Assembly: GCA_002452155.1 (NCBI GenBank)
Contig: DKEK01000005.1
Span: 70,675 to 134,674 of the forward strand
Direction of reading: 5' to 3'
From: Candidatus Saccharibacteria bacterium UBA6824
GTDB lineage: Bacteria; Patescibacteriota; Saccharimonadia; Saccharimonadales; UBA10212
Length of the DNA: 64,000 bases
Position 1 is the stretch's first letter. Each line of letters begins with the position of its first letter. Both the position numbers and the translations under genes were made by a program. Under the pieces are notes generated by a model. It ran no database searches. It worked only from the letters and a program-made list of their open reading frames with translations, and was not told the DNA's origin. This document shows positions 1,420 to 52,846 of the stretch, piece by piece.

Positions 1420-1506
1420 TGGTGGCGCAGAAAGGACTTGAACCTTCACGGGCGTAAGCCCACTACGTCCTGAACGTAGCGTGTATACCAATTTCACCAC
1501 TGCGCC
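1420..1506 (-). tRNA. tRNA-Leu(CAG)
   Basis: Hand-folded cloverleaf. Acceptor stem GGCGCAG/CTGCGCC, encoded ACCA end, anticodon loop TTCAGGA (CAG), long variable arm, T-loop GGTTCAAGTCC. Confidence 0.9.
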
Positions 1507-1917: not shown

Positions 1918-3546
1918 TTGAATAAAATCGCGCATTATTTGCAGGGACATATCGCCGGAGAAGTTACTTCTAACCCGGATGCTAGGCGGTACTTTGCGCA
2001 TGATGCCAGTATCTTAGAAATAGTTCCAACGGCTATTGTTTACCCGCGTAATGAAAACGACGTCCGCAAAAGTATTCGTTTCGCCTGGCAGCTCGCTGGA
2101 CGTGGTAGAAAACTACCTATCACGCCGCGCGGTATGGGTAGCGGCACCTCGGGTTCCGCGATCGGTAGCGGTATTGTTTTGGTTTTCCCGGCCCACATGA
2201 ATAAAGTTGTCTCACTGGATACCAAGAAGCGCACAATGTCTGCCCAACCGGGCGCCAACTTTGGGGCGCTTTTGCAAATGCTCCAAACTCACGGCCTGTT
2301 TTTGCCGCCTTATCCTGCGTCAAAAGATTACGCGACCATCGGCGGCGCTGTGGCTAATAATGCCATTGGCGAAAAATCGGTCAAATATGGGGCCATGGCC
2401 GATTTTGTTCAAAGTCTGCGGGTAGTGCTGAGCAATGGCGAGCTTATTGAAACCGGCCCCTTGAGCCAAAAAGAACTCAGCCACAAGATGGGGTTGCAGA
2501 CTTTGGAGGGCGAAATTTATCGCTTGATTGACGCCCTACTTGAAGAAAATGCCCACCTTTTGCCGGTTGGCCGGGAGCGCCTTAAAGCCCGCTTTAGCAG
2601 CATCGGCTATAACATCTTTGACGTCAAAAAAAATGGTCAGTTCGATTTAACACCTTTATTTACCGGTTCATTGGGTACATTGGGGGTCATTACGGAAGTC
2701 ACGTTTAGGGTTGCTCCGCACCACCCGCGCACCACCCAAATGCTGGTCAGCCTGGAAGAACTTGAGGACTTAGGCGATATCCTACCGAGTCTTTTGGACC
2801 TCAAGCCAAGTATGGCCGATATGCTCAGCCGCGCAGCCGTCCAACAAATCCTGGAGCTTAACCCTAATCAATTGTCTGACTTATCAATGCCTCATGAGGC
2901 TTTCATGCACTTGTTTATTGAGTTTGACGACTCGAAAGAGGCCGATAGAAAGAAAAAAGTAAAACATCTGCAAAAAATTGTCGATGGGCTTGGTGCATGG
3001 TCAGAAGTTTATGAAGATTTGCAGAGCCAGGAGCGCCTACGCAAACTGAGTGGCAGCGTAGCAATACTTCTCCAGCCGCAGGGCCCAGCTGTAGCCACGC
3101 CAATAGCCGAAGATATCTCTGTCCCGGTGGACAAGCTGGCCGACTTTCTGAAGAAAATCCAGCTGGTCTACCGCGAGGTTGGCCTGCCTCCCGCCCTCTG
3201 GGGTCAAGCCGGTATCGGCGTAGTACGGATGTGGCCGGCGCTGGATCTGGGACAAACCGGTGACCGCCAGAAACTGTTTAAGATCCAGGGTAGCCTGTAC
3301 GCCGCGGCTGTGCGCCATGGCGGCAGCATTAGCGCATCAGCCGGGGACGGCCGGGTCCGGGCCCCTTATAGCCCCATGGTCTACGGCCCGGAGGTTCATG
3401 CTCTAATGCTGAGCGTCAAAAAGATATTCGACCCGCGAGGGATTTTAAATCCTGGTGTAAAGACCGCTTCAACAGAAGAAATAAAAGTTCTAATGCGAAG
3501 TAGTTATAGTTTGTCCAATTTTTACGACTATCTGCCCCGAAGTTAA
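1918..3546 (+). CDS. FAD-linked oxidase (GlcD / D-lactate dehydrogenase-like, PCMH-type FAD-binding domain)
   Basis: 542-aa ORF with TTG start. The N-terminal FAD-binding region (PRGMGSGTSGSAIG) and C-terminal FAD-oxidase domain ending ...KKIFDPRGILNPG are typical of the GlcD family. Confidence 0.75.
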   Translation: MNKIAHYLQGHIAGEVTSNPDARRYFAHDASILEIVPTAIVYPRNENDVRKSIRFAWQLAGRGRKLPITPRGMGSGTSGSAIGSGIVLVFPAHMNKVVSLDTKKRTMSAQPGANFGALLQMLQTHGLFLPPYPASKDYATIGGAVANNAIGEKSVKYGAMADFVQSLRVVLSNGELIETGPLSQKELSHKMGLQTLEGEIYRLIDALLEENAHLLPVGRERLKARFSSIGYNIFDVKKNGQFDLTPLFTGSLGTLGVITEVTFRVAPHHPRTTQMLVSLEELEDLGDILPSLLDLKPSMADMLSRAAVQQILELNPNQLSDLSMPHEAFMHLFIEFDDSKEADRKKKVKHLQKIVDGLGAWSEVYEDLQSQERLRKLSGSVAILLQPQGPAVATPIAEDISVPVDKLADFLKKIQLVYREVGLPPALWGQAGIGVVRMWPALDLGQTGDRQKLFKIQGSLYAAAVRHGGSISASAGDGRVRAPYSPMVYGPEVHALMLSVKKIFDPRGILNPGVKTASTEEIKVLMRSSYSLSNFYDYLPRS

Positions 3547-3679: not shown

Positions 3680-3764
3680 GGGCGGGTGGCGGAATTGGTA
3701 TACGCTGCGGACTTAAAATCCGTTGCCGCAAGGCTTGAGGGTTCGAGTCCCTCCCCGCCCACCA
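3680..3764 (+). tRNA. tRNA-Leu(TAA)
   Basis: Acceptor stem GGGCGGG/CCCGCCC, anticodon loop CTTAAAA, long variable arm, T arm GAGGG-TTCGAGT-CCCTC, encoded CCA. It lies 3 nt after tRNA-Cys. Confidence 0.9.
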
Positions 3765-3848: not shown

Positions 3849-3876
3849 CCGTTTTACGTAGCTCCCCGTAAAACGG
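3849..3876. repeat. conserved hairpin CCGTTTTACG-N8-CGTAAAACGG (copy 1 of 2)
   Basis: 10-bp stem. The ~35-nt context CCTTTTCCGTTTTACGTAGCTCCCCGTAAAACGGGTTA is nearly identical to 13920..13955. Both copies lie about 85 nt downstream of a tRNA whose 3' end reads CCCACCACGTC. Confidence 0.8.
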
Positions 3877-13763: not shown

Positions 13764-13840
13764 GGGCGCTTAGCTCAGTTGGCTAGAGCATCTCGTTTAC
13801 ACCGAGAGGGTCGGGGGTTCGAGTCCCTCAGCGCCCACCA
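13764..13840 (+). tRNA. tRNA-Val(TAC)
   Basis: GGGCGCTTAGCTCAGTTGGCTAGAGC, anticodon stem TCTCG/CGAGA with loop TTTACAC, T arm GGGGG-TTCGAGT-CCCTC, encoded CCA. Confidence 0.9.
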
Positions 13841-13925: not shown

Positions 13926-13951
13926 CGTTTTACGGAGCTCCCCGTAAAACG
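13926..13951. repeat. conserved hairpin CGTTTTACGG-N6-CCGTAAAACG (copy 2 of 2)
   Basis: 10-bp stem. The context CCTTTTTCGTTTTACGGAGCTCCCCGTAAAACGGGTAA matches 3843..3879. Confidence 0.8.
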
Positions 13952-28006: not shown

Positions 28007-29080
28007 CTACTGGGGGCACTTTTTGACGCAATATTTACGAATATTATCCTCGTGTTCGGCTTGGGTGTGGGCAAAGTGCATCTTGCCGTCATCACCGGCT
28101 ACAAAATATAGATAGTCAGTGGTGGCAGGGTGAGCCACAGCGTTAAGTGCGTCTTTGGTCATATTGCTAATCGGCCCAGGTGGGAGGCCTGGATATAAGT
28201 GAGTGTTATATGGCGAATCAATAGCCAGGTTTGGCGGTTTCACGCCGGCGATAGCCGAAGCGTAAAAAGCCGTAACGTCAGAACCAAGCGCCATGTTGCC
28301 CGCTAGGCGTGACAAAAAGACTTGGGCAGCTGTTGGCTGGTAGGTCGGATCATCGGTCTCTTGGGCAACGATAGAAGCCAGCGTAATCCCTTGGTAGACG
28401 TTCAACGAGTGGGTCCCGAAACCATTGATTACATCTTGTGTTAGGTATTTTTGCATTTCGTCAAGCGATTCGCGGACGATGTCGATAGCCGGGGTATCGG
28501 CCTGCTTTTCAAAAGAGTCGGGATATAAGTAGCCTTCTAGCGAAGCGCCGGCAGGCAGGCTGGCCAGCACTGGATGGCCACGGTAGCTGGCCGGGTCAAA
28601 GGCCTGATCAATTTGACCGGCGCTGTAACCGGCGGCCGCAAAAGCTTGTTTAACTTCGTCGAGGCGCTTTTGCGGCAGAATAGTCAGCAGATTTTTAGCC
28701 ACGTCGCCGCCCACCATTTTTTTGACGATCTGTTCGACCCCCATAGAAGGACCCAGCGAATAAGTGCCGGCTTGCAACTTGTCGTGGAGTTCGTTGCTGC
28801 GGACATAGGTTTCAAAAACCCGGGCATTTCTGACCAGCCCGGCGCTTTTAAGTTTAATGGCGATTTGATGCAAGCTGGCCCCAGGTGTAACTGTAAAATA
28901 CTTACTGGTAGTCAAAGATGATACCGGTCTTAGGTTATGTACGTACCAAGTGCGAAGCGAAATAACACCGCCGCCCAACACTAAAATGATAACTGCCAAG
29001 GCAATGAGCAGCCGTTTGGATGGTCGAGGAGGCACCGGTTTATTCAGCCGCATCATAAAACTATACCAAAACCCGGTCAA
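28007..29080 (-). CDS. mltG: endolytic murein transglycosylase MltG (YceG-like)
   Basis: N-terminal TM followed by a YceG domain (ASLEGYLYPDSF, LASIVQETDD, SPYNTHLYPGLPPGPI). Confidence 0.9.
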   Translation of the reverse strand: MTGFWYSFMMRLNKPVPPRPSKRLLIALAVIILVLGGGVISLRTWYVHNLRPVSSLTTSKYFTVTPGASLHQIAIKLKSAGLVRNARVFETYVRSNELHDKLQAGTYSLGPSMGVEQIVKKMVGGDVAKNLLTILPQKRLDEVKQAFAAAGYSAGQIDQAFDPASYRGHPVLASLPAGASLEGYLYPDSFEKQADTPAIDIVRESLDEMQKYLTQDVINGFGTHSLNVYQGITLASIVAQETDDPTYQPTAAQVFLSRLAGNMALGSDVTAFYASAIAGVKPPNLAIDSPYNTHLYPGLPPGPISNMTKDALNAVAHPATTDYLYFVAGDDGKMHFAHTQAEHEDNIRKYCVKKCPQ

Positions 29081-29486: not shown

Positions 29487-31263
29487 GTATTTTGCCGGCA
29501 TTTTTAGGAGTTTTACTGACCCAAAACGGGCTGAGTTTGACATCGACTTCTTTGACACCCGGCAGATTGCCGAGCGCTGAGCGGATATCACCGGTTTTTT
29601 GGCCGGCGGCGGTTTTTTTGACAGCGGCGACATCAATGATCGGCACCGCGGTGGTGTCTTCCCTTAGCGCTAATGTGACTTTGGTCGGCGCCTCTTGAGA
29701 CGTGACACTGACCGTCAAGCCCTTAAGCACATCGTCGCTGCTGAGTTTTTGTTTTTTAGTGTCAATCTGCTTAGACATCTGGTCGGCAACCGCTTTTCTG
29801 AGGTCGTCATTTTTGAGCGTTAGTAGGGTATAGGTAATTTTAACGGTCACATTGGCATTGGTGGCCGGCTGACCGACCGGCACTGATGAAGTTAGCGCCG
29901 GGTCGCTCAGTTTAAGGGTTGAGGTAATGAGGTATAGTCCCTGGTCGCTAAGTTGTTTTTGCCAGTCTTTAGTGAATTTGTCGGTGTCGGCACTGGTAAT
30001 TTTTTGTTTAGCGCCATCGACGTCTGACTGGCTAAGGACAGTAGCTGTATTATCAGTACCGCCGCTGGCGCTGCCGCTGGCGGCCACATCTGGGCGGCCG
30101 GACACACTGAAGCTGGTTGAACCAACATTATATTTACTGCCACCAGTTTGGGCCTTGATGGCTGTCGGGCTGTTAGCAGAATAATTCACACAGCTACCAG
30201 CGGCGCCACTTATACTAAAGCTCGTCTTGGCTTGGGTTATATAAGTTAGACTGTTATGGCTAAGACCGGTGCCTGCCGGTACGTCATCTGGGGTGCTAAA
30301 GGGCGCCGAGCAGTCTTGAGCTGACATTGTTACCGAACCGCTGGCTTTATCGCCGTTATTCTGCTGGCCGGTGGCATTAACGGCAGTCGTGGCCGTTTGG
30401 TCCTTGGTTTGCAGGGCGGCCGGAATGATGCCTTTGGCCTCGTCAAGAGTTTTGGCGCCGCCGTCAGCTGTTAAATTAAAGCTGGCTGAAACCGGCAGAC
30501 TGATAGTTTTGAGGGTTATGGTGGCCTTGGGCAGCACAAATAGTGCCAAGATCAAAAAGACAATAAAGAGTACTAAACCGGCGATGCCCATGCCCAGGCT
30601 CAGGCGGAATTTGTCAAAGTTTGGTACTTTCAATCCCTTGTCTTTGAAGGCTTTAGCCTTGGCTTTGGCAGATGCCGTTACCCCCCCAACTTCCGCGGAG
30701 CCAGTCTCTACATCGTCCAAGGGGATGGTTTCGGGTTCTTCCACTTCAGCGGCCGCGGCCAGCTCGCCGATTGAATGGTTATAATCTATTTTGGCGTTAC
30801 CTTCGTCAATCTCTGCTTCTGGCTCCTCGGCTATTGCTTCGGCCGACGAAAGGGGTTTCCCCGGCCCTTCGTGGATGGGTACGGGTGAGGGTGGAATGTG
30901 CGGCTTGCTAGTCAAATTTTTAGCTATGTGCAGTCCGGCGGCACCGGCTAACGGTGACAGTGCCGAATCGCTGGTTATTAAAACGGCGCTTCTTCCGGCG
31001 CTGTCGGCAGCCCTCTTTAGCAGGCGCATATTGACAATGCTCTGCATGACGGTTGCCCGCTTAGGTAGTACCAGTGCCACCATCTTCTCTTTAGCGTTTT
31101 CAACTTTGTCGATTATCGATGTGATCTCATCGTCAAGGTCAATGTAAACTACGTCTTTGCCCGGTTTGGCCAGATTTTTATCGGCGCTCATCCCGTTAGA
31201 AGTCCGATTCGCGTCTGGCAAATCGGCAGTATTCCCCGAATTCTTACTTTTAACGGGACTCAT
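29443..31263 (-). CDS. bitopic membrane protein (cytoplasmic N-domain, one TM, large T/S/A-rich external domain), unknown function
   Basis: 606 aa. The start overlaps the ftsA-like stop by 4 nt. TM helix is MGIAGLVLFIVFLILALFVLP. Confidence 0.55.
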   Translation of the reverse strand: MSPVKSKNSGNTADLPDANRTSNGMSADKNLAKPGKDVVYIDLDDEITSIIDKVENAKEKMVALVLPKRATVMQSIVNMRLLKRAADSAGRSAVLITSDSALSPLAGAAGLHIAKNLTSKPHIPPSPVPIHEGPGKPLSSAEAIAEEPEAEIDEGNAKIDYNHSIGELAAAAEVEEPETIPLDDVETGSAEVGGVTASAKAKAKAFKDKGLKVPNFDKFRLSLGMGIAGLVLFIVFLILALFVLPKATITLKTISLPVSASFNLTADGGAKTLDEAKGIIPAALQTKDQTATTAVNATGQQNNGDKASGSVTMSAQDCSAPFSTPDDVPAGTGLSHNSLTYITQAKTSFSISGAAGSCVNYSANSPTAIKAQTGGSKYNVGSTSFSVSGRPDVAASGSASGGTDNTATVLSQSDVDGAKQKITSADTDKFTKDWQKQLSDQGLYLITSTLKLSDPALTSSVPVGQPATNANVTVKITYTLLTLKNDDLRKAVADQMSKQIDTKKQKLSSDDVLKGLTVSVTSQEAPTKVTLALREDTTAVPIIDVAAVKKTAAGQKTGDIRSALGNLPGVKEVDVKLSPFWVSKTPKNAGKIHVVQQQVSSGNTSP

Positions 31264-32585
31264 GTCCGTAGCACCTTATTAAGTTTAGCCTTTACGCTGG
31301 TGCGCTCGGGCGCGGCACCGGAATTTACCGTATCCATACCAACCCGGAGCAAGCCCATGGCGGTAATGTAAGTGTGGTCGTTAACGTCGCCCGTGGCATC
31401 AGTGATACCTATCACTTCTTCCGGCTGGATGTGCTGGACAATCGGCTTTTTGGTGAAGGGCAGATTTTTATGCCATTTGCCGTCTTCCAGCTGTTTCATT
31501 AACATTTCAAGTGATGAGCCGCCGCCGCATAGCAGCAGACGGTGTGGCAAATGGTCGAGCTTGCTAAATTCGGCCAGTGCCAGTTCAACGCCGCTAATCC
31601 AGACATTCAGGGTTTTTTCCAGAGCTTTTTCTATCTCCGGCCGCTGCTTGGCGGCTACCAACTGGCCGCCCAGGCCAACTTTTAGGGCTTCGGCCTTGGT
31701 AAAATCAATGTCCAGTTCGCGTTCGATGGCGTGGGTAAAGGCCCGGCCGCCAATGCCAAACATTTTAGTACCCTCAACGCCGCCCTCGTTGACCACGGCA
31801 ATATCGGTTGTACCACCGCCGACGTCCATCAATATGGCGCTCAGGCTGGTGTTGGGGTCGTCGCCAACTACCGAGCGGGCAACCGCAAAAGGTTCGGCGG
31901 CCACGGCCAGCAACTCTAGGTCGAGTTCGGTGGCCGTACGCTCCAGCGCCCCGATATGAATCATCGGCGCAAAAGCCGTGTACATTTCTACTAATATGTC
32001 CTTGCCCTGGAAGCCAACGGGGTTGGTGACTTTATAGCCGTCGATATCAATCCGCACCAAGGCACTATTGACTAAGCGCACCTGAACGTCCTTACCGCCT
32101 AGTTCCCACGCCAGCTGTTGACGGGCTTTTTGCTCGGCGCGCTCCTGCACCAGCTCGATAATCCGTTCCATCTCATCAATGTCCAGTTCTTTGGCTTGGT
32201 TATTGCGGGTAAATCTGACCGTACTGGTCGTGCCTTTCACCAGTTCGCCAGCAATGCCAATAACAGCGGTCCGGGCGGAAACTCCGGCTTGGGATTCAGC
32301 CGCTGCTAAGGCCTGGTCGCAGTTAGCCACCACAGCCGCGATGTCGGCAATCGCCCCAGCCTGCATATCAGCCAGTTCTTGGTGAGAGCGGCCAACACCT
32401 ATAATCTCGACTTCATTGCCGACCACCCTGCCGACTAGGGCTTTGATAAATTCGGTGCCAATATCCAGCGCTACCAGGTAGTTTTCTACCGGCTTGCCCT
32501 GCCTGCCGGCAGGCAGGCGCGCCTTCAGCTGTGAGACTTTTGGCACTTTTGCCCTGATATTTTTAACCCTGTCGGCAATAGCCAT
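31260..32585 (-). CDS. actin-like ATPase of the FtsA/PilM family (probable FtsA)
   Basis: LVALDIGTEFIKALVG..., IGIAGELV, LMDVGGGTTDIAVV and LLLCGGGS are ASKHA phosphate and adenosine motifs in FtsA-like order. No ftsZ is adjacent. Confidence 0.7.
   Translation of the reverse strand: MAIADRVKNIRAKVPKVSQLKARLPAGRQGKPVENYLVALDIGTEFIKALVGRVVGNEVEIIGVGRSHQELADMQAGAIADIAAVVANCDQALAAAESQAGVSARTAVIGIAGELVKGTTSTVRFTRNNQAKELDIDEMERIIELVQERAEQKARQQLAWELGGKDVQVRLVNSALVRIDIDGYKVTNPVGFQGKDILVEMYTAFAPMIHIGALERTATELDLELLAVAAEPFAVARSVVGDDPNTSLSAILMDVGGGTTDIAVVNEGGVEGTKMFGIGGRAFTHAIERELDIDFTKAEALKVGLGGQLVAAKQRPEIEKALEKTLNVWISGVELALAEFSKLDHLPHRLLLCGGGSSLEMLMKQLEDGKWHKNLPFTKKPIVQHIQPEEVIGITDATGDVNDHTYITAMGLLRVGMDTVNSGAAPERTSVKAKLNKVLRT
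32498..32517. repeat. 20-nt perfect palindrome CCTGCCTGCCGGCAGGCAGG inside the ftsA-like gene
   Basis: Exact palindrome, translated on the minus strand as LPAGRQ within the N-terminal tail ...KARLPAGRQGKPVENY. Confidence 0.9.
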
Positions 32586-34631: not shown

Positions 34632-35696
34632 TTAGACTACTATTCCTCCTCCCAGGCATTGGTCGTCGGAGTAGAAGACGGCGGATTGGCCGGGAGTTAG
34701 TGCCCGTACGTCTTCCTCCAAGTCAGCACTCCAGAAATTACTTGAGCGGTTAAGTTTTTTTACTGTAATCAACTTGGCACGGTGACGAGTGCGGACAAAA
34801 AGTTCTTGGTCCTTTTGAGGTTGGCTATTTATCCAATGAATGCCGGTCAGTTTGATCTGATTATTCCATAACCTATTGTCTTGCAGGTCGGTTGTGACGT
34901 GAATCTCATTCTTCTTTATATCTTTACCGACCACGTAAAACGGCAAGCCACCCTGCCTACCGGCAGGCAGGCGCCCTCCAGTTCCTAGGCCGTGGCGCTG
35001 GCCGATAGTGTAGAAAAAAGCGCCATCGTGCTCCCCAAGCGTCAGGCCTTTTTGGTCGATAATCTTGCCCGGCGTTTCCTTGATGTACTGCTTTAGAAAA
35101 TCTTTGATACTAACTTTGCCTACAAAACAGATGCCCATGCTTTCTTTTTTATCAGCCGTTACTAGGCTGGCTTTTTTAGCCAGGGCTCTGACTTCGGGTT
35201 TTGTCAGTCCGCCAAGCGGGAATAGGGTCTTACTGAGCGCGGTGGAGTCTACGCGGTGCAAGAAGTAAGTCTGGTCTTTATTGCCATCTTTAGCCGTGAG
35301 TAGCTGGCCGTTTTTAACTTTTGCATAATGACCGGTGGCAATATAGTCTGCCCCGCCGCGCAGCGCTGTTTCTAAAAACAACTTAAATTTAATTTCCTGA
35401 TTGCACATAATATCGGGGTTGGGCGTGAAGCCCGTCTCATAGCCTTGCAACATATATTTGACCACTTTATCAAAGTAATCTTTCTCAAAATCATAGACCT
35501 TAAACTCAATCCCAAGCTGCACGGCTACACGTTTAGCGTCTTGGTAGTCCTCTTTCCAAGGGCATTTCATGCCGGGCAAGTCCTGGCTCCAATTCTTCAT
35601 ATAGACGCCAACGACATGAAAGCCCTGCTCCTTTAGAAGCAAAGCGCTAACGGAGGAATCAACGCCCCCGCTTAAGCCAACGTAAACTGTTTTCAT
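34632..35696 (-). CDS. mnmA: tRNA 2-thiouridine(34) synthase MnmA
   Basis: PP-loop VGLSGGVDSS, catalytic Cys regions and ...YTIGQRHGLG... The track starts at TTG 35714; ATG 35696 (MKTVYVGLSGG) is more likely. Confidence 0.93.
   Translation of the reverse strand: MKTVYVGLSGGVDSSVSALLLKEQGFHVVGVYMKNWSQDLPGMKCPWKEDYQDAKRVAVQLGIEFKVYDFEKDYFDKVVKYMLQGYETGFTPNPDIMCNQEIKFKLFLETALRGGADYIATGHYAKVKNGQLLTAKDGNKDQTYFLHRVDSTALSKTLFPLGGLTKPEVRALAKKASLVTADKKESMGICFVGKVSIKDFLKQYIKETPGKIIDQKGLTLGEHDGAFFYTIGQRHGLGTGGRLPAGRQGGLPFYVVGKDIKKNEIHVTTDLQDNRLWNNQIKLTGIHWINSQPQKDQELFVRTRHRAKLITVKKLNRSSNFWSADLEEDVRALTPGQSAVFYSDDQCLGGGIVV
34952..34971. repeat. palindrome-family copy CCTGCCTACCGGCAGGCAGG inside mnmA
   Basis: One mismatch from the perfect palindrome. 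Translated as LPAGRQ in GLGTGGRLPAGRQGGLPFYVV, a loop between conserved blocks. Confidence 0.9.
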
Positions 35697-35710
35697 TGGC
35701 TTATAGTTTA

Positions 35711-35950
35711 TCAAACATCAAGGAAAACGGTGACTTTGTCGCTCTTGACGTGCATGACGGCTTGGTTAACCGTCATGGCAAAGTCGTCTTTGCCGGCTAT
35801 CCGCACTTTGACTTCCCCCGGTCTTAGTAAACACATGAAGTTTTTATGGCGCGGTAAAATATCAAATGGGCCGCTGTCATTGACGGCCGAGACACTGGCC
35901 GCCGGACCATCAAAATATACTTTGAACGGGGCGTAGATCTTTACGGCCAT
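35711..35950 (-). CDS. atpC: F1 ATP synthase subunit epsilon (short, beta-sandwich only)
   Basis: MAVKIYAPFKVYFDGPAASVSAVNDSGPFDILPRHKNFMCLL... It immediately follows atpD. Start chosen at ATG 35950 to avoid overlap with atpD. Confidence 0.75.
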   Translation of the reverse strand: MAVKIYAPFKVYFDGPAASVSAVNDSGPFDILPRHKNFMCLLRPGEVKVRIAGKDDFAMTVNQAVMHVKSDKVTVFLDV

Positions 35951-39697: not shown

Positions 39698-40261
39698 TCA
39701 TGGCTTACCTGCCTGGCCGGCAGGCAGGCCCGCCGTGGTTGTCGTACCCGGTGCCGGTGCGTCCAGGGCGGCGCCTTTTAAGAGTTCCAGGAGATAGGGC
39801 GTCTGTTTTTCCAGGCTGGCGCCTAAGCTCATATCAAAAATTTTATTAGGCGTCCTTAGCACGCAGCCGGCAGCAATCGCCGGCTGCAAGCCAATCTGCA
39901 CTAGTGTATAGCGGTGAACGTTTGTCCGCAGCCAGTTTAGTATGGTTTCCGTCACTTTCGGTGAAGGCTCGGCTGCAAAACTAACGTGCACCGTCGGCGC
40001 GTGGTCACGGATTTTGGTTAATTGATCGGCCATGTGTCGTCGATGGGGCTGTTGCTGCAGTTTATAGCCGTTAGCCAAGGCGGTTTGGTCGAGCAGGTTG
40101 GTAACTTTGGGGGCTTGAGTTTCCCGGACCGGCTGGCTAATTAAGGCTTCTTCAAGCGTCTCTAGTTCGCGCAGTAAGTGGTTAATGTCGGTTCTACCAC
40201 TTAGCTGAGCCGGCAGTACAAACGCGGCAGTCTCGACTGGCTTTTGGCTTTTAAGCGCCAC
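39698..40261 (-). CDS. atpH: F1 ATP synthase subunit delta (OSCP)
   Basis: It sits upstream of atpA. The C-terminal half is OSCP-like (VHVSFAAEPS...AIAAGCVLRTPNKIFDMSLGASLEKQ). The tail DAPAPGTTTTAGLPAGQAGKP contains the palindrome copy. Confidence 0.75.
   Translation of the reverse strand: MALKSQKPVETAAFVLPAQLSGRTDINHLLRELETLEEALISQPVRETQAPKVTNLLDQTALANGYKLQQQPHRRHMADQLTKIRDHAPTVHVSFAAEPSPKVTETILNWLRTNVHRYTLVQIGLQPAIAAGCVLRTPNKIFDMSLGASLEKQTPYLLELLKGAALDAPAPGTTTTAGLPAGQAGKP
39708..39728. repeat. palindrome-family copy CCTGCCTGGCCGGCAGGCAGG at the atpH 3' end
   Basis: 21-nt variant with one extra G. Translated as LPAGQAG, 3 codons before the stop. Confidence 0.85.
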
Positions 40262-52460: not shown

Positions 52461-52846
52461 TGGTGGAGCTGGTGGGAATTGCGCCCACGTCCGATGGTTT
52501 AATTAACTAGCGCTCTACAGGTTTAGGCCACTTAATATTGTTCGGAAACGAAGACCGCTAAATGGCCAAAAAGTCTCGTTCCCTAGTCCAAAATCTTAAC
52601 AAATCTCTAGGACACTGAGATTTGGGCAACCAGATGATATGACACACTGTAGACTCTATCTGATATCGAGCCGAGCATGGCTTACGAAATTAAGCGTAAG
52701 CTGGTGCGAAAACCGGCATGCTGAACATGCTAGCCATTCGCGAAACAAAAGATTTTACATCTATTGTGGTTGCACCGGATAACGTTCAGTGCAATCCGAC
52801 CTGCAAGCTAGTTGTTAAAGTCCACCGTCAAGCTGAAATCAGCCCC
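52461..52846 (-). ncRNA. ssrA: tmRNA (SsrA)
   Basis: The 5' end GGGGCTGATTTCAGC... pairs with the 3' end ...GGACGTGGGCGCAATTCCCACCAGCTCCACCA. That gives a tRNA-Ala-like acceptor with a G3:U pair, a T arm and CCA. An internal open frame ends ...MPVFAPAYA-TAA (stop at 52690..52692). Length 386 nt. Confidence 0.88.

Follow-up and report, generated by a model that had tools for sequence, protein, structure and literature searches.

Copies of PAL in the window

The stretch of DNA analysed here, referred to throughout as the window, comprises 64,000 nucleotides of contig DKEK01000005.1 from Candidatus Saccharibacteria bacterium UBA6824. The names of homologous proteins agree in assigning it to Saccharimonadales (Saccharibacteria/TM7). 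It contains several copies of a candidate insertion element of only 20 bp, named PAL (CCTGCCTGCCGGCAGGCAGG), which is a perfect palindrome with a G+C content of 80%. A DNA search of the window found an exact copy at 32498-32517 and copies with G8 replaced by A (plus strand) at 1787-1806 and 34952-34971. An indel-tolerant search added a 21-nt copy at 39708-39728, which carries one extra base (CCTGCCTGGCCGGCAGGCAGG). The four copies claimed in an earlier note on this DNA were thereby confirmed, and so was its argument that their recurrence is not due to chance, the expected number of copies in the window being 0.00 in 100 dinucleotide-preserving shuffles. The copies and the genes that hold them are as follows.

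1776-1817, no strand: nested double copy, with the inner PAL at 1787-1806 (CCTGCCTACCGGCAGGCAGG) centred in an outer PAL
1776-1786 and 1807-1817: halves of the outer PAL, flanking the inner PAL at 1787-1806
31260-32585, minus strand: FtsA-like gene, with matches to PF14450 and TIGR01174 that are both below cut-off
32498-32517, minus strand: exact PAL, located in the FtsA-like gene's N-terminal linker and encoding ..KARLPAGRQGKPV..
34632-35714, minus strand: mnmA, in which the insert encodes G[GRLPAGRQ]GGLP
34952-34975, minus strand: 24-nt mnmA insert, made up of PAL at 34952-34971 (sense CCTGCCTGCCGGTAGGCAGG) and 34972-34975 (sense GGCG)
39698-40261, minus strand: ATP-synthase-delta-like open reading frame (ORF) of 187 amino acids, directly upstream of atpA and with only a sub-threshold ATP synthase delta match
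39708-39728, minus strand: 21-nt variant (sense CCTGCCTGCCGGCCAGGCAGG), located in the ATP-synthase-delta-like ORF at its 3' end

The intergenic copy has tRNA-Leu(cag) (1420-1506, minus strand) on one side and an FAD-oxidase gene (1918-3546, plus strand) on the other. As the earlier note had observed, it forms a 42-nt perfect hairpin, for which a DNA folding energy of -26.8 kcal/mol (z -6.3) was obtained. The hairpin exceeds a plain PAL by 22 nt (CG + PAL) and is the expected product of PAL plus 2 nt inserted at the centre of another PAL. Since the two neighbouring genes are divergent, this copy is not at a terminator position. No Rfam family was found at PAL. The genic copies encode RLPAGRQG (FtsA-like), RLPAGRQG (MnmA), and GLPAGQAG (delta-like). 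Their placement in a tail or loop had been claimed as well and was borne out, as they fall in a variable loop of MnmA, the N-terminal linker of FtsA, and the C-terminal tail of the delta-like protein. The asymmetric flank GCG-PAL that the copies were said to share is also real (sense strand GCGCG, GCGCG, and GGGCG).

A look-alike in yceG (28007-29080, minus strand) was rejected as a family member. The sequence GGCAGGCAGG at 28550 is native code for the conserved SLPAGASLEGY motif, which is also what the half-site look-alike CCTGCCTGCCGG at 28545-28561 encodes. This site is not an insertion, because the relative L173 has SLPPGASLEGY at this place (here and below, L-numbers denote DNA loci compared with the window and P-numbers denote homologous proteins).

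Evidence for insertion at the genic sites

Judged by sequence comparison with relatives, the copies of PAL in the window are insertions. In MnmA, eight codons are absent from 117 of the 120 closest homologues, which read GL.VG-GGLPYYV, and the extra residues G[GRLPAGRQ]GGLP were found in only three, the window's own protein among them. At the DNA level the insert amounts to 24 nt (GGCG + PAL), and its site aligns with a naturally variable, longer loop in solved structures (QHGGDNA, GIGGQHGGDNAPWFVV; S. pneumoniae MnmA, 2HMA). In FtsA, PAGRQ was found in none of 120 homologues with up to 92% identity. Moreover, PAL-like sequence is absent from the nearest syntenic relative L173 (21 kb compared, of a 684-kb contig), and no PAL copy was found in the syntenic relative L123 (21 kb). 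The alignment of orthologues that the earlier note proposed as a check therefore came out in favour of insertion, and it shows that this Saccharimonadales lineage gained its PAL copies after the split from its nearest sampled relative.

The comparison with L173 also gives the anatomy of two of the sites. At the FtsA site the window has a net gain of 15 nt: L173 reads CTG GCA AAA AGA CGC G/GC AAG CCG (the slash marks the junction), and the window reads ..GCG CG[PAL]GC AAG CCG, which fits an insertion of PAL (+20) with 5 nt lost just upstream. At the delta-like site the net gain is 22 nt, before a common downstream GGTAAGCCATGAGTCCCGTTAG. The 3' end reads GGT AAG CCA TGA in the window and G GTA AGC CAT GAG TCC CGT TAG in L173. 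Because the shared downstream GGTAAGCCATGAGTCCCGTTAG is read in another frame, the insertion shifted the frame and replaced the C-terminal residues, so that the tail now reads ..GLPAGQAGKP before the stop.

The copies were checked for assembly artefacts, and 11-13 kb with all three genic copies were found to be 100% identical in four assemblies from different samples. One of these contigs, L176 (JGI 3300013766, Ga0120181_1000858), matches the window up to the 21-nt copy (PAL') and then continues in unrelated DNA (L176 1-330). On this foreign side a tyrosine recombinase (PF00589) gene is found, whose frame runs through the palindrome (YLPGRQAGK). The break in L176 either comes from chimeric joining at the repeat or marks a second locus with PAL'.

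In the FtsA-like linker (approximately 32480-32530), orthologues P0123, P0125, P0146, P0148, P0154, and others carry a different 8-residue insertion (KKRGKPLHFG-RGKPV), which looks like a local RGKP duplication. Even apart from PAL, then, this linker is a hot spot for indels.

Reading frame of the genic copies

The insertion is exactly 20 bp long, which is not a multiple of 3 and shifts the reading frame by +2, and for this reason in-frame placement is a matter of survivorship and not a property of PAL. The genic copies are survivors with compensation, which is +4 in MnmA (total +24 nt) and -5 in FtsA (net +15). Genic PAL was shown to persist only where the +2 shift is harmless, as in a C-terminal tail, or is compensated (+4, -5, or the 21-nt derivative), and only where a loop or linker takes up the additional LPAGRQ-type peptide. 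The 21-nt derivative, which has one extra central base, lies inside ORFs of 108-823 codons in eight of nine viral stretches; it is enriched in ORFs, unlike the 20-mer, which is mostly intergenic. The tally of genic and intergenic copies by frame that had been suggested was also carried out. Most copies in other genomes are intergenic, with 34 of 127 lying within ORFs of at least 150 codons, compared with three of four genic copies in the window. The LPAGRQ frame is used in 16 of these 34, a preference that would fit selection against the two Cys-containing frames (PACRQA and CLPAGR). Of the claim that all three genic copies are in frame, the translations therefore stand, but the delta-like copy shifts the frame and so is not an in-frame insertion. 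The broader idea that the element as such inserts in frame had to be given up.

Distribution across phyla and phages

A scan of one genome per species (596 Gb) for the exact 20-mer or its R8 variant found PAL in at least 120 genome stretches, where about one match was estimated for a random 20-mer. Among the matches listed, approximately 38 are from Bacteroidota and approximately 28 from the candidate phyla radiation (CPR)/Patescibacteria, eleven of the latter being Saccharibacteria. Further hosts among these matches are Omnitrophota, Planctomycetota, Bdellovibrionota, Thermodesulfobacteriota, uncultured Gammaproteobacteria, Nitrospirota, and Chloroflexota; no cyanobacterial genome is among them. 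Cultured isolates are represented in this list, as are a single-cell genome and a complete long chromosome. Viral contigs contributed another 35 stretches with PAL, while two control palindromes of the same composition, one with the same arms in reversed order, were found in 0 and 0 viral stretches. Identical PAL thus occurs across more than ten phyla and phages. Counting beyond the window, as had been proposed, confirmed a repeat family, but one that is not peculiar to this genome. A plasmid BLAST search with the nested copy gave chance-level matches only.

The flanks of PAL are unrelated between sites, and PAL loci have a median G+C of 0.45 compared with 0.80 for PAL itself. Two or more family members were found at 21 of 159 loci, with varying spacings, and density ranges from 0 to 16 copies per few kb. 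A bona fide tailed-phage contig (with terminase and adaptor) holds at least six PAL copies in 29.5 kb. The viral contig L158 (IMGVR_UViG_3300025106_000007) holds 16 PAL-like copies in 4 kb. At L158 3915-4142 a 21-nt PAL derivative (GCCATGCCTACCGGCAGGCAG) is repeated in tandem at least 10 times, in an array that reaches the contig end and reads (LPAGRHG)n on the minus strand. Six more PAL-like copies are dispersed over the 2.4 kb before the array.

Anatomy of the insertion

Exact boundaries were obtained from filled/empty pairs, that is, local repeat copies with and without PAL at one locus. In more than 10 such paralogue pairs the difference was exactly the 20 bp of PAL, with no target-site duplication (TSD). 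They include pairs in a repeat resembling repetitive extragenic palindromic (REP) sequences.

L006, L033, L057, L095, L106, L125, and L145/L153: exact 20-bp, no-TSD pairs from the filled/empty comparison
L165/L166/L034/L097: exact 20-bp, no-TSD pairs in a REP-like repeat, CTCTCC-TTGG-GAGAGGG/GTTGGGGGTGAGG
L044, L052, L093 (two insertions, both in one partial copy), and L156: exact 20-bp, no-TSD pairs in partial tRNA copies

Across 177 distinct sites TSDs were not enriched, as abutting 2-nt repeats numbered 8 against 12.5 expected and 3-nt repeats 0 against 2.8. Position -1 of PAL avoids T, and the commonest junctions are G/PAL/G, G/PAL/T, and A/PAL/T. The first of these was observed 66 times against 37 expected, so that one-base identity across the junction is enriched. 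Nested copies and arm-like flanking words are enriched around PAL, and nesting was also found in other phyla (e.g., L020, L026, L059, L065, and L109). Flanking direct repeats of at least 7 nt are enriched too (19% against 4.4%), which reflects low-complexity heptamer or octamer words near many copies. In viral contigs, the pair 8/13 of PAL varies by transitions only (GC 42, GT/AC 14, AT 1), and the pair 4/17 is invariant. The T/A variant shows no bias in orientation relative to genes (29 vs 24). Decayed variants of PAL and a shared G8A/C13T subfamily exist as well.

In a viral contig, L149 2239-2330 is a 92-nt tRNA-Met(CAT) (ARAGORN) in which PAL exactly forms the long variable arm (AGG/PAL/TC), and this tRNA with its acquired extra arm may still be functional. 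A tRNA lies within 400 nt of PAL in 16 of 184 cases, which is about what intergenic elements would show.

Two readings of the immediate surroundings were tried and dropped. The motif GGYAAGCC stands beside all three genic copies in the window, but a shared target motif was ruled out by its rarity in the larger sample (4 of 354). An intrinsic terminator was likewise rejected, since a T-run lies within 10 nt at only 14 of the 177 sites (8%).

Several observations concern the repeats that surround PAL. The composite REP-like repeat, CTCCCCTCTCC-TTGG-GAGAGGG followed by GTTGGGGGTGAGG, occurs at L165, L166, L034, L097, L017, and L076, in Chitinophagaceae/Ferruginibacter genomes and one contig classed as viral, and its junction is found with and without PAL. 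Partial 5' tRNA copies (Val, Lys, Leu, and one of no assigned type) hold PAL in the D-loop region (L044 3617-3660, L052 2111-2160, L093 1405-1495, and L156 499-545) and in each case the same tRNA sequence has an intact copy, 94-338 nt upstream of which the partial one sits. Among Bacteroidota, Planctomycetota, and viral loci it is common for PAL to stand amid imperfect tandem heptamers or octamers, such as TTCGGAG TTCAGAG TCCGGAG [PAL] TTCGGAG (L087, L098, L071, L007, L080, L090, L125, L133, L146, and L148). Direct repeats of 7 nt abut PAL exactly in three cases, and a 14-nt repeat does so in one. These words may be low-complexity spacers older than the insertion, or they may have arisen through it.

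Nature and mobilisation of PAL

Taken together, PAL is probably a very small, non-coding, proliferating insertion element, a bare hairpin similar to REPs or small dispersed repeats (SDRs), identical across phyla and phages. New copies were shown to be precise, TSD-free 20-bp insertions into unrelated contexts, including PAL centres, other hairpins, and tRNA and protein genes. Unrelated flanks, decayed variants, the G8A/C13T subfamily, nesting, and the tandem array mark a family with descent. PAL appears to be among the smallest DNA parasites seen.

Since nothing is encoded in PAL or beside it, it would be moved or copied in trans, most likely in the form of a single-stranded DNA hairpin while replication or repair takes place. 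In having a bare hairpin and no TSD, PAL resembles the HUH/Y1 chemistry of IS200/IS605 insertion sequences (ISs) and of REP-associated tyrosine transposases (RAYTs). A dedicated nuclease or transposase, possibly phage-borne, is quite conceivable without being favoured. PAL would be selfish or neutral rather than functional. More tentatively, and with considerable doubt, it might represent a new class of minimal mobile DNA that is carried between phyla by phages, moves through a broad-host-range enzyme or a hijacked replication or repair step at hairpins, and remodels MnmA, FtsA, and tRNAs, with a site preference that hits the same MnmA codon repeatedly.

Several results weigh against PAL as a mobile element. 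Neither excision nor transposition was observed directly. The window contains no RAYT or transposase in its 64 kb, as the earlier note had stated. Searches within 2.5 kb of 177 copies and, in the fetched loci, between paired half-sites likewise revealed no gene for mobilisation. The PAL-dense phage contigs encode terminase, adaptor, and one HNH protein, and no recognisable HUH transposase or reverse transcriptase. The perfect identity of PAL across phyla is unlike REP families and could instead indicate a conserved binding function. Further difficulties come from mnmA. The same GGCG+PAL stands at the same codon in at least four alleles, which are diverged and do not come together in the tree. 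Five unrelated loci also have a 28-mer, GGCG-PAL-GYGG, in common, and this points either to a longer unit or to co-copied donor flanks.

The mnmA alleles were compared in their own right. L121, L122, and L182 (a JGI metagenome allele) all carry the 24-nt insert of the window. The insert-bearing genes are approximately 68% identical, and their proteins are not mutual nearest relatives (ranks 36th to 119th of 119). In 100 neighbour-joining bootstraps they were never sisters, and the smallest split with all three contained 71 of 120 taxa. A recombination tract around the insert was looked for, and no local identity peak was found. The base before the insert differs among alleles (G, G, C, and A). 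The same 24-nt insert in diverged alleles is not predicted by a simple model of random 20-bp insertion, and three readings remain: repeated hits by a slightly longer subfamily unit, co-copied donor flanks, or spread by short-patch recombination.

Among other explanations, the least improbable, though rather unlikely, is that no dedicated enzyme exists and that PAL is copied by template switching during replication or repair, through microhomology-mediated copying or through gene conversion, with a copy already present as the source. Stalling at hairpins would favour such copying, and intrastrand quasi-palindrome correction would keep the arms perfect. Copying of this kind would account for the microhomology at junctions and for the flanks that are now and then co-copied: G/PAL/G identity, arm-like flanking words, and direct repeats of at least 7 nt are all enriched, some insertions bring bases matching the flanks of other copies (GGCG), and a double, compensated A/T variant exists. 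The missing TSD and the lack of an associated gene in the window, near the 177 copies, between half-sites, and on PAL-dense phage contigs agree with it too. Yet most filled/empty pairs have clean 20-bp ends with no homology to a donor, a vehicle would still be required for passage between phyla, and the presence of this one 20-mer across phyla, with control palindromes absent, is left unexplained. An artefact of assembly or sequencing, or an ancestral protein motif in favoured codons, is next to negligible as an account. Palindromes can produce mis-joins, and L176 turns to unrelated DNA exactly at PAL'; but four independent assemblies agree completely over all three genic copies, reading frames are maintained, and PAL occurs in isolates, a single-cell genome, and a complete long chromosome. 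Likewise, yceG natively encodes SLPAG with CCTGCCTGCCGG, but the residues in question are absent from 117 of 120 MnmA and 120 of 120 FtsA homologues, and most PAL copies are non-coding.

PAL might also be a functional site for protein binding or recombination, such as a 7-6-7 tyrosine recombinase core or a ParB/Noc-like centromere, with its identity kept by selection across phyla as for parS and its presence in genes being secondary. This is improbable, even though conservation is exact across phyla and variation is limited to transitions at 8/13, the two ends of the central GCCGGC, and spares 4/17. The only recurrent single-copy neighbour of PAL is parB (ParB_N + HTH_ParB), which adjoins it at five of approximately 155 loci, in four phyla and a virus (L003 2446, L069 7461, L150 3452, L093 1422, and L078 6177; three within 31 nt of the ORF), and in one contig PAL' is joined with the gene of a tyrosine recombinase. 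At the five parB-adjacent PAL sites, no sequence resembling parS was seen. A functional site is hard to reconcile with presence or absence that differs at orthologous sites of close relatives, with nesting, the tandem array, and the disruption of tRNA gene copies, with the lack of a constant genomic context and of any strand bias relative to genes, and with the wide range in copy density. Very unlikely is an ordinary REP/REPIN family mobilised by a RAYT (an IS200/IS605-like Y1 transposase) whose gene lies elsewhere in each genome. Such systems do produce small G+C-rich hairpin repeats that lack a TSD, intragenic REPs and REP families common to distant species are documented (PMC3733652), and the search for RAYTs was confined to the 64-kb window and 2.5 kb around the 177 copies. 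Nevertheless, tags beside the hairpin are rare, no REPIN-type inverted doublets at fixed spacing occur, and no RAYT was found beside any of the 177 copies, whereas REPs normally stand on either side of their RAYT gene. Moreover, a perfect palindrome with 10-bp arms, identical in more than ten phyla, contrasts with REPs, which are imperfect and lineage-specific (PMC3116915, PMC3733652). A parent IS bounded by PAL arms was sought in the fetched loci and rejected, the candidate intervals encoding an amidase and glycoside hydrolases.

If PAL is truly mobile, the lower size limit for a self-propagating DNA element is 20 bp, a hairpin alone, and one such sequence can colonise hosts from CPR bacteria to Bacteroidota, Planctomycetota, and phages. 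It would offer a tractable route to how REP-like repeats move without a RAYT, with the advantages that the filled/empty sites are clean, that the 20-mer is defined, and that essential genes and tRNAs provide natural experiments. A practical caveat is that PAL introduces indels into conserved marker genes and can give rise to chimeric joins when metagenomes are assembled.

Other features of the window

A second hairpin family has two copies, at 3849-3876 and 13926-13951, of the form CCGTTTTACG-(6-8 nt)-CGTAAAACGG. They lie approximately 85 nt downstream of tRNA-Leu (3680-3764) and tRNA-Val (13764-13840), and the hairpin may terminate tRNA operons or be a site for processing or binding. Genes are mostly on the plus strand at 1-6 kb and almost entirely on the minus strand at 14-64 kb. 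Because of this change in orientation, there may be a replication-related strand switch near 6-14 kb; GC skew in the window is weak. One RNA gene remains to be listed.

52461-52846, minus strand: transfer-messenger RNA (tmRNA) gene

Comparison with known systems

REP families co-evolve with their transposases. Small palindromic repeats in genes are already known (REPs, PMC3733652; Rickettsia palindromic elements, PMC10969869), as are very small hairpin mini-insertions in cyanobacteria. A literature search found no published description of the PAL sequence, of its peptide, or of an untagged symmetric 20-bp unit identical across more than ten phyla and phages, in agreement with the earlier note, whose author knew of none.

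REPs and REPINs are short, G+C-rich, dispersed hairpins that are mostly intergenic, sometimes genic, and without target duplication, and their patchy distribution suggests horizontal spread (PMC3733652, PMC3116915). PAL resembles them as a short, G+C-rich, dispersed hairpin that is likewise free of target duplication, sometimes genic, and, in genomes other than that of the window, mostly intergenic. It differs in being a perfect palindrome, identical across phyla and phages. The unpaired GTAG/CGTC tag of REPs is lacking: among 354 oriented flanks, GTAG stands within 7 nt of PAL in only 4 and CGTC in only 7. Whereas REPINs form inverted doublets at a characteristic spacing, PAL occurs as singletons, nested copies, and irregular pairs, and the RAYT gene that REPs flank was not found within 2.5 kb of 177 PAL copies. 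PAL was therefore not filed as a REP, because the tag, the doublets, and lineage specificity were looked for and not found, and no flanked RAYT turned up in the window or within 2.5 kb of the 177 copies.

Cyanobacterial SDRs are said to be hairpin units of 21-27 nt that form clean mini-insertions in conserved sequence and can be nested, and SDR families have reportedly come from Nostocales genomes. To our knowledge, no mobilising enzyme is known for them. PAL is alike as a clean hairpin insertion in conserved sequence that can be nested, which is a resemblance of kind. Compared by description only, PAL is shorter, perfectly symmetric, cross-phylum, and of different sequence. SDRs are represented in PMC3116915 by its citation of Elhai et al. 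(2008; Genome Res 18:1484) on "very small mobile repeated elements."

[quoted passage not shown] Palindromes of the HIP1 type and DNA uptake sequences are motifs of 8-12 nt, enriched by point substitution or selection throughout genes and lineage-specific. PAL was not assigned to them, as it arrives instead as a 20-bp indel and is common to phyla.

Short mobile G+C-rich palindromes are also found in yeast mitochondria, where GC clusters and byps occur in protein and RNA genes of A+T-richer genomes. These are organellar, 30-50 nt long, and have target-site preferences, and byps are bypassed by the ribosome. PAL differs from byps in that there is no sign of skipping, frames being restored at the DNA level.

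Rickettsia palindromic elements (RPEs) are palindromic repeats kept in frame inside housekeeping proteins at structurally permissive sites (PMC10969869). The likeness to RPEs drawn by the earlier note holds for the outcome only, namely tolerated peptide inserts at permissive sites, and fails for size, structure, and host range. RPEs are approximately 100-150 bp long, carry a conserved peptide module, and are confined to Rickettsia. They are units of a multiple of 3, while PAL, at 20 bp, is not intrinsically in frame, and its genic copies need +4, -5, or +1 to keep the frame of the genes into which they have been inserted.

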